Source of the DNA: a virus
Taxonomy: Duplodnaviria > Heunggongvirae > Uroviricota > Caudoviricetes
Reading direction: 5' to 3' (one strand)
DNA: 64,000 nt
IMG/VR virus record: IMGVR_UViG_2565956726_000008
Position 1 is the first letter of the stretch; every line of letters begins with the position of its first letter. Shown here piece after piece: positions 26,859-27,431 of the stretch. The notes beneath the pieces are model-generated. The model was not told the DNA's origin and ran no database searches. It saw only the letters and a list, made by a program, of their open reading frames with translations. The position numbers and the translations under genes were made by a program.

Positions 26859-27431
26859 ATGGCTAAGGCTAAAGGCATTAAGTTGCCTCAATTCAAAGTC
26901 CCGCTCTTTGAGCATACAACCGTTTTCTTTTGCCCGACCCGCGAGATGTTCTATGAATTTTGCGAAAAGGCCGGAATACCAATCGAACCTGATTTCGAAC
27001 TAGCTGGCGGTCTGACGTTAACCTGTACTGGTGAGACCGGCGGTAATTTCTACGTGATCGCAGTATTCAACAATGAGACTGGAACGCTGGTCCATGAATG
27101 CGCTCACACTACATTCCACGTTTTAAGTGATGTAGGCGTCGTGGCGACCACTGATCCTACTCATCCTGCGAATGAGACTTACGCTTACATGGTTGGACGT
27201 ATCTTTGACGCATTCTTCCCAATCCTGGCTGAATCAAACGAAGCACAGATCACAGCGATGCAGGCGGCTGAAGTCGTTGAGCAGGCGTTAGAAAAGGCAG
27301 AGCAGGCGACTGATGCAGCAGAACAGGCAGAGGAGCCGAAAGAAGAGAAAAAACCAGCTAAGAAAGGCAAACGTAAGCCGAAAGCAAAAGAGGCGCTTGT
27401 ACCGCGCGTTATGAGCTTTAAGAGAGGGTAA
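26859..27431 (+). CDS. HExxH-motif protein with polybasic C-terminal tail
   Basis: 190 aa; VHECAHTTFH (H-E-x-x-H); C-terminus EEKKPAKKGKRKPKAKE. Confidence 0.5.
   Translation: MAKAKGIKLPQFKVPLFEHTTVFFCPTREMFYEFCEKAGIPIEPDFELAGGLTLTCTGETGGNFYVIAVFNNETGTLVHECAHTTFHVLSDVGVVATTDPTHPANETYAYMVGRIFDAFFPILAESNEAQITAMQAAEVVEQALEKAEQATDAAEQAEEPKEEKKPAKKGKRKPKAKEALVPRVMSFKRG

Follow-up and report, generated by a model that had tools for sequence, protein, structure and literature searches.

The DNA analysed here (64,000 nucleotides of the IMG/VR record IMGVR_UViG_2565956726_000008; hereafter the window) belongs to a temperate E. coli phage or prophage of the mEp021-like (mEpimmI) group. Our subject is a gene on its plus strand at positions 26859-27431, a complete open reading frame (ORF) with an ATG start and a TAA stop, whose product of 190 residues (the window protein) is predicted to contain a minimal zinc metallopeptidase domain. 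The gene runs in the direction of the late operon and lies directly upstream of the packaging genes, the local order being holin (25440), lysozyme (25641), Rz/Rz1, a spacer of 268 nt, the zincin-like gene, an array of hydrophobic mini-ORFs, an acidic ORF of 48 aa, terS, terL and portal (Table 1). The 3.2-kb region around it is 86-88% identical to MagusPhagus, mEp044, mEp010, mEp021 and other phages of the group, and E. coli 2017C-4173W12 has a chromosomal prophage gene with 100% identity to the gene itself; the gene is found in 31 of 5,426 complete E. coli genomes, and nothing in its composition points to a foreign origin. The mEp021 orthologue, gp49, is annotated as 'hypothetical protein'. 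A preliminary description of the locus had reported the ORF and its coordinates, a HECAH sequence, a Lys-rich stretch and a position between the spanin and the mini-ORF array, all of which are borne out on the sequence. Neither a signal peptide nor a transmembrane (TM) segment is evident in the 190-residue protein.

Table 1. Features of the zincin-like gene and its surroundings in the window (dN/dS, ratio of nonsynonymous to synonymous substitution rates).
Feature	Position	Strand	Basis or remark
Rz-like spanin, last gene of the lysis cassette	26120-26590	+	phrog_13, E 1e-39
Rz1-type ORF embedded in Rz	26310-26522		
Shine-Dalgarno sequence AGGAG	26845-26849	+	9 nt before the ATG; read from sequence
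Coding sequence, 190 aa + stop; orthologue of mEp021 gp49	26859-27431	+	121 close homologues; dN/dS
Residues 1-125, predicted minimal zincin-like (gluzincin-type) catalytic domain, corresponding to the entire PHROG 1365	26859-27233	+	
HECAH, residues 79-83 (H79, E80, H83), predicted zinc ligands and general base	27093-27107	+	invariance; inside helix 74-91
N105-E106, predicted third zinc ligand (Glu), start of next helix	27171-27176	+	E106 invariant in 74 and 92 sequences
Residues 126-160, acidic extension of the Glu helix, rich in Ala/Glu/Gln; spacer of variable length	27234-27338	+	
Residues 161-190, Lys-rich disordered tail (KEEKKPAKKGKRKPKAKE) closing with conserved motif ALVPRVMSFKRG	27339-27428	+	
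Array of 8 single-TM-like hydrophobic mini-ORFs, 14-31 aa	27434-28084	+	annotated in MagusPhagus, mEp044
Small terminase subunit, Sf6 type	28251-28766	+	Pfam PF20901 E 1e-37 and PF17289 E 5e-13 (terminase pair)
Large terminase gene	28741-30255	+	after small subunit

The six-frame translation of the window contains four HExxH motifs, of which only the HECAH of this gene lies in a long ORF, and such a motif by itself is weak evidence, within chance expectation; the HECAH is significant because it is conserved across homologues. Residues 1-132 match phrog_1365 (E 3.2e-31, profile positions 3-125 of 127), as do 74 of 74 aligned homologues, and this family is listed as of 'unknown function', in keeping with the earlier statement that the gene stands outside the standard lysis and packaging gene sets. 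An exhaustive phmmer search with residues 1-135 against 1.84 billion cluster representatives gave 149 hits, most of them stand-alone proteins of ~110-135 aa. Genuine members are stand-alone and span 85-216 aa, the sole longer hit (P0249, 307 aa) being an unrelated repeat protein. In the alignment of 74 sequences, which has a mean column identity of 23%, only G51, H79, E80, H83 and E106 are invariant, and the same invariance is seen with 92 sequences. E106 lies 23 residues after H83 and, together with HExxH, makes up the gluzincin signature, which accounts for four of the five invariant columns. HExxH is kept in 146 of the 149 representatives (the exceptions are two short sequences of 70 and 105 aa and one unrelated repeat protein), while the downstream Glu was scored by a regular expression in 124, mostly 22-23 residues after the second His; the remaining representatives are misses of the expression in which the Glu is visible on inspection, bar the three without HExxH. 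The Cys of HECAH is variable (C/A/V/L). Conservation of H87 is limited to the E. coli subfamily; elsewhere the position is F/Y/D/N/K.

An AlphaFold2 model of residues 1-135, built with the 74-sequence alignment (predicted local distance difference test score, pLDDT, 93.8; predicted template modelling score, pTM, 0.88), has strands at 11-13, 21-25, 51-57 and 63-69, a helix at 28-38, a helix at 74-91 that carries HExxH, and a helix from 104 that carries N105-E106. The core of zincin metallopeptidase (MPTase) domains has been described as a small β-sheet, the HExxH helix and a next helix bearing the zinc-binding Glu (PMC5512222), and the predicted fold agrees with such a zincin-type core. Since the tetrad is invariant and a high-confidence model sets HExxH in one helix and the Glu where the following helix begins, the suggestion that HECAH sits in the context of a zinc metallopeptidase gains in weight, and the fold, as modelled, is compatible with a metal-binding HExxH helix. 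Among predicted viral structures (BFVD), 30 matches were obtained at E<1e-3, nearly all to small uncharacterised proteins of very diverse phages, a few of which are named SprT-like or metalloprotease. In the full-length model (pLDDT 88.8) the Glu helix is unbroken over 104-157, the last 33 residues are without secondary structure and the pLDDT falls to 59-70 over the final 30.

It could be argued that the HExxH is non-catalytic, the product being a structural or regulatory protein, a pseudo-enzyme or the bearer of a chance motif, and the four HExxH of the window, along with the want of a curated metallopeptidase family above threshold, would fit such an argument. However, it is precisely the four catalytic residues of a gluzincin that are invariant amid drift to 23% identity, and the geometry of the motif fits the predicted helices; we thus find this reading disfavoured by the conservation and very improbable.

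Searches of Pfam, NCBIfam, PADLOC and the PDB with the protein and with a 74-sequence profile found no family above threshold. The metallopeptidase profiles, which the preliminary description had proposed as a check, provide weak motif-level matches but no curated family, and the profile search of PDB sequences likewise gave marginal motif-level matches only, with no close solved structure. The SprT-like family PF10263 is weakly matched by 19 of the 74 homologues (best E 9e-4) and is not matched by the window protein at E up to 10. We rejected membership in it, as the matches are sub-threshold and confined to the HExxH helix and as E106 is invariant while H87 is not. In SprT, Wss1 and SPRTN the third ligand is a His shortly after HExxH. 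The window protein shares with these enzymes a minimal zincin head with the HExxH helix, but it lacks a Zn-ribbon, SHP or SIM module and its third ligand is predicted to be Glu, not His.

Another candidate is the MPTase-PolyVal domain (Iyer, Burroughs, Aravind 2017), which resembles the window protein in core fold, invariant residues and phage setting, and by whose name the homologue P0118 is known in nr, though this is only a lead. MPTase-PolyVal is absent among the Pfam hits listed, and it is a domain of giant multidomain proteins, whereas the window protein stands alone in a family of ~120-190 aa; delivery together with DNA, as for polyvalent proteins, has no evidence in its case. Membership was rejected on these grounds, i.e., no profile match is listed and the members are stand-alone rather than multidomain. 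ImmA/IrrE/CapP (Peptidase_M78) was also rejected: a single weak match was found among the 74 (E 0.099), the neighbours are spanin, mini-ORFs and terminase, and the gene lies in a late operon without the adjacent helix-turn-helix (HTH) repressor or defence operon. PADLOC models did not match the window protein and gave five scattered single matches among the 74 members (best E 0.0095). M3 oligopeptidases and other gluzincins (thermolysin-type HExxH...E) are 5-6 times larger and have a closed substrate channel; ~80 residues superpose on them with a root mean square deviation of 3.8 Å and 12% identity, and there is no sequence-level relationship. The minigluzincins proabylysin and projannalysin (PDB identifiers 4JIU and 4JIX) and the 114-aa zincin 3e11 are named among the nearest known systems. 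Because the searches of curated families gave only sub-threshold or motif-level matches, PHROG 1365 appears to be an uncurated branch of the zincin superfamily. Judging from the alignment and the model, it deserves the annotation 'zincin-like (gluzincin-type) metallopeptidase, PHROG 1365', and the window protein is a tail-bearing addition to the small phage zincins, an already known kind.

The domain is followed by a C-terminal extension. The protein had been described as ending in a polybasic tail that might bind nucleic acids or membranes, and the Lys-rich EEKKPAKKGKRKPKAKE is indeed present at residues 162-178, but it is not the terminus, as 12 conserved residues (ALVPRVMSFKRG) lie beyond it. 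Within the E. coli subfamily the linker (126-160) shows indels of 10-14 aa and has a weak match to Alanine_zipper (E 0.025), while the tail KKGKRKPKAKEALVPRVMSFKRG is nearly invariant, with K171, R172, K173, K175, K177, P182 and V184 fully so. The gene as a whole is strongly constrained, with a dN/dS of 0.05-0.23 over the coding sequence against three related phages (mEp021, MagusPhagus and mEp044); against the same phages, the ratio is 0.05-0.06 for the domain (1-125), 0.13-0.23 for the linker and 0.05-0.13 for the tail (161-190), and from the values of tail and domain the tail therefore appears to be under purifying selection as strong as that on the catalytic domain. P0121 (56% identity) has an equivalent tail (...KPKKASKPKAKPIKEEYVPRIARYKRG), and the members P0163, P0192 and P0211, from distant subfamilies, bear independent charged or Lys-rich extensions. 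The tail motif has no second occurrence in the window, and a database search for the tail in other protein contexts returned only two short matches (80 and 50 aa), which are uninformative. The part of the gene that encodes the tail also overlaps, in another frame of the plus strand, an extremely basic ORF of 33 aa (27313-27414; MQQNRQRSRKKRKNQLRKANVSRKQKRRLYRAL), which most probably arises as a side effect of the AAG/GAA richness of the coding sequence.

A tblastn search against 50,697 phage records located homologues in each of the seven mEp-like phages and in a further 73 records, most of them P22-like, at two sites. In ST64T the gene lies between an Rz-like spanin and the small terminase, as in the window, and adjoins a decoration protein gene; the same homologue is present in L (Orf129), ST104 and epsilon34 (gp70). 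In P22 and HK620 (hkcC) the gene has ejection gene 16 on one side and the immI/tailspike region on the other, a long way from the lysis genes, and in the N4-like phages Bp4, St11Ph5 and KP8 a shorter relative is present among small ORFs near a genome end. The P22 record (BK000583, 13849-14226, plus strand; L002 2989-3366) contains an intact, unannotated PHROG 1365 ORF (hidden Markov model E 4e-39, with HECAH and NETYCY) between sieA and orf59a, which overlaps the annotated sieA promoter and mnt terminator and whose HK620 equivalent is hkcC.

A scan of viral contigs with a degenerate N-E-T-F-C-Y-L DNA pattern yielded 25 loci, of which 13 are true members, and the gene context was compared over 21 distinct loci (22 examined, one duplicate), metagenomic and IMG/VR loci included. 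Terminase genes lie ≤5 ORFs downstream on the same strand in 13-15 of the 21, and their small subunits are of different types, namely Sf6-type (window), P22 gp3-type, Terminase_2 and DUF2280. The gene may also stand beside a second gene of its kind by motif: in the IMG/VR loci L016, L033 and L035 it overlaps by 4 nt an unrelated HExxH gene (214 aa), in tandem directly upstream of the terminase. The 214-aa protein of L016 belongs to Pfam PF18894, PhageMetallopep (E 4e-43); in L016 and L033 a 149-aa ORF (DUF2280 in L016) and then the large terminase come next, while L035 ends after the 214-aa ORF. PF18894 resembles the present family as a small phage HExxH protein encoded directly upstream of a small terminase gene, but kinship was rejected, since hhalign of the family alignment against a confirmed PF18894 member gave a probability of 0.8% (E 0.072), over the motif only. 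In five further loci (L003, L011, L020, L025 and L028) the family gene has as its immediate upstream or downstream neighbour a gene for a helical protein of ~80-118 aa, which the ST64T record relates to P22 AAF75061. This protein has no homologue in the window, from which an orf80-like partner gene that stands beside homologues in P22-like loci is also absent.

Based on the conserved signature, the model and the gene context, we lean, on balance, towards the explanation that the window protein is an accessory late protease of the gluzincin type that is tethered to DNA or to a partner and acts at packaging. The product would be a cytoplasmic, late-expressed accessory protein whose residues 1-125 form a minimal gluzincin-type zinc metallopeptidase, with the metal presumably held by H79, H83 and E106 and the water activated by E80 as general base. 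The Glu-bearing helix would be prolonged as a long acidic spacer to residue 157, and the disordered Lys-rich tail with its terminal motif is most likely a tether that holds the enzyme on a polyanion (DNA) or a partner protein. Such an enzyme may cleave a protein substrate, or a few of them, when the genome is packaged (proteins on replicated DNA, for example), in a manner akin to the DNA-tethered proteases SprT, Wss1 and SPRTN; cleavage at packaging time is proposed from the recurrent site of the gene immediately upstream of terminases of varied type. A small protease head joined to a basic, probably DNA-binding appendage is also the working principle of the SprT, Wss1 and SPRTN group (PMC4559962). 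We infer metal binding, proteolysis, late expression and DNA tethering from these features, and hold the tail-tethered removal of proteins around packaging, which is drawn by analogy, with low confidence. It would be a long shot to extend this to the family at large, in which PHROG 1365 would be an unrecognised class of packaging-associated proteases, minimal gluzincins that are DNA-tethered by a basic tail in some lineages and that clear protein obstacles or host sensors off replicated phage DNA, or off the packaging machinery, shortly before the terminase acts or while it is acting; encoded beside terS in numerous unrelated phages, they would be a phage counterpart of the DNA-protein crosslink proteases of the SPRTN/Wss1 type.

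Several observations weigh against this explanation. The likeness to solved or curated proteases is slight: Foldseek against the PDB gave nothing significant, the fold matches to solved zincins are weak (Z ≤5.8), and the best score to PF10263, from ten relatives scanned singly, is 15.7 bits against a cut-off of 25.6 and covers profile positions 60-96 only. PHROG 1365 is of 'unknown function', and a term search matched neither gp49 nor metallopeptidase in the mEpimmI paper. The median extension in the family is 0 and most members are without a tail; therefore, the core mechanism of the family cannot depend on DNA tethering, and the tail appears to be a lineage-specific add-on outside it. As regards the gene context, the homologues of P22/HK620 and of the N4-like phages are located away from the terminase-proximal site, and a single sequence motif served to sample the loci, which are phylogenetically non-independent. 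The junction of lysis and terminase genes is moreover a classical hot-spot for accessory genes, and the synteny may for this reason reflect insertion opportunity rather than function.

The same accessory character gives room to a counter-defence or host-takeover protease, in which the zincin head would cut a protein of the host, such as an immune sensor that responds to late phage proteins (terminase, portal or capsid among them), and the tail would serve in partner binding or localization and not in DNA binding. Proteins of phage-host conflict often contain zincin MPTase domains (PMC5512222). In favour of this reading, the gene is small and accessory, occupies a moron-rich position and is spread in mosaic fashion over unrelated phages; the copy of P22/HK620 lies inside the immI/sieA accessory region, and that of the metagenomic locus L009 (147-2224) adjoins, on its upstream side, a gene for Pfam 'Sequestin' (PF21825). 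Counter-defence genes are, however, mostly early, and a late-operon position is atypical for them. Nor did any PADLOC model match, and literature searches (PF18894, phage metalloprotease/anti-defence, P22-like accessory genes, SprT-like with phage, and hkcC) found no functional study and no report of anti-defence activity. We regard this alternative as unlikely, though it deserves to be taken seriously. In L009 a tyrosine integrase also stands between the family gene and the terminase downstream, an odd site for an integrase.

The head module of the window (31716-35459) encodes a MuF-like head morphogenesis protein, a 427-aa protein of phrog_760 (unknown function), a decoration protein and the major capsid protein (MCP; DUF6260/phrog_771), and no prohead protease or scaffold is recognizable in it. 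This gap, together with the place of the zincin-like gene at the head of the packaging and head-assembly cluster, might suggest a capsid-associated processing enzyme, which a long helix and basic C-terminal motif would direct into the procapsid in the way of a scaffold- or cargo-targeting peptide, there to trim a head or internal protein. Conservation is as strong in the tail as in the domain, and some MPTase domains of polyvalent proteins have been linked to encapsidation (PMC5512222). On the other hand, the gene is located upstream of terS and not between portal and MCP, and most members have no tail by which they could be targeted. P22-type heads mature without proteolysis, yet P22-type phages carry the family. 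Finally, we infer that the window protein is not a virion component, because gp49 is annotated as 'hypothetical protein' while mEp021 gp41 is named 'virion structural protein' from a set of 16 virion proteins identified by mass spectrometry. Processing within the capsid is in our opinion decidedly improbable.

Downstream, the first mini-ORF starts at 27434, 2 nt past the stop of the zincin-like gene, and a 4-nt overlap is present at the same junction in MagusPhagus, which suggests translational coupling; the strand is shared, a terminator scan found none between the gene and the mini-ORFs, and co-transcription of the two, as the preliminary description had supposed, is plausible from the sequence. 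The mini-ORFs are tightly packed, with grand average of hydropathy values of 0.8-3.0 and no leader/core organization, and the array is AT-richer than its neighbours (38-42% GC). Individual mini-proteins (e.g., MNAYEMLLLVAVVVVIAVDVYREFKK, MKWLDFFFLIVAIVLTMTALTQ) are conserved at the amino-acid level in mEp021, MagusPhagus and mEp044, and the number of cassettes varies from ~5 in mEp021 through 8 in the window to >10 in MagusPhagus. From this junction and the position directly after the spanin genes one could suppose that the window protein is a maturation peptidase or modifier of the membrane mini-proteins, or a regulator of lysis timing, and the HExxH peptide-hydroxylase model TIGR04267 is weakly matched by 10 of the 74 members (best E 0.012). 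In the window protein, however, that match covers only ~25 residues around the motif, the mini-ORFs encode single-TM peptides without leader and core, and the enzyme itself has no signal peptide or TM segment. A functional tie to lysis or the mini-ORFs moreover fails at the family level: most homologues are without an adjacent array, some lie far from the lysis genes as in P22/HK620, and no consistent association with lysis genes or mini-ORF arrays was found outside the mEp-like phages among the loci examined, the recurrent neighbour being the terminase. This coupling is disfavoured by the family-wide context and we give it very little credence.

If the window protein is an active protease, as the tethered late gluzincin that we favour would be, a testable function would be available for a family that is found widely among tailed phages, carries the label hypothetical wherever it is annotated, and takes in the unannotated ORF of P22 and its orthologues in L, ST64T, epsilon34, HK620 and N4-like phages. 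That the gene recurs beside terminases of different types, at times in tandem with a second, unrelated HExxH gene, may point to proteolysis as a step in packaging or late infection that textbook models lack, and a domain of ~120 residues would be among the smallest zincin scaffolds, of possible value for the structural biology of proteases. At present the result amounts to a better annotation and not a discovery, its appeal lying mainly in the terminase-proximal synteny and in a widespread family that is functionally uncharacterised.

Two features upstream of the gene may be mentioned. The spacer between Rz and the gene (26591-26858) matches no Rfam family and has a folding z-score of just -1.85; within it are a stable hairpin (UUUCCGCC...GGCGGAAA) and a pair of short ORFs that are annotated in some relatives. 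Further upstream, at 25397-25415, a strong GC-rich hairpin followed by a T-run is found ~25 nt before the holin start; it resembles a terminator that is read through by antiterminated late transcription, and mEp021 has a terminator annotated at the equivalent site.
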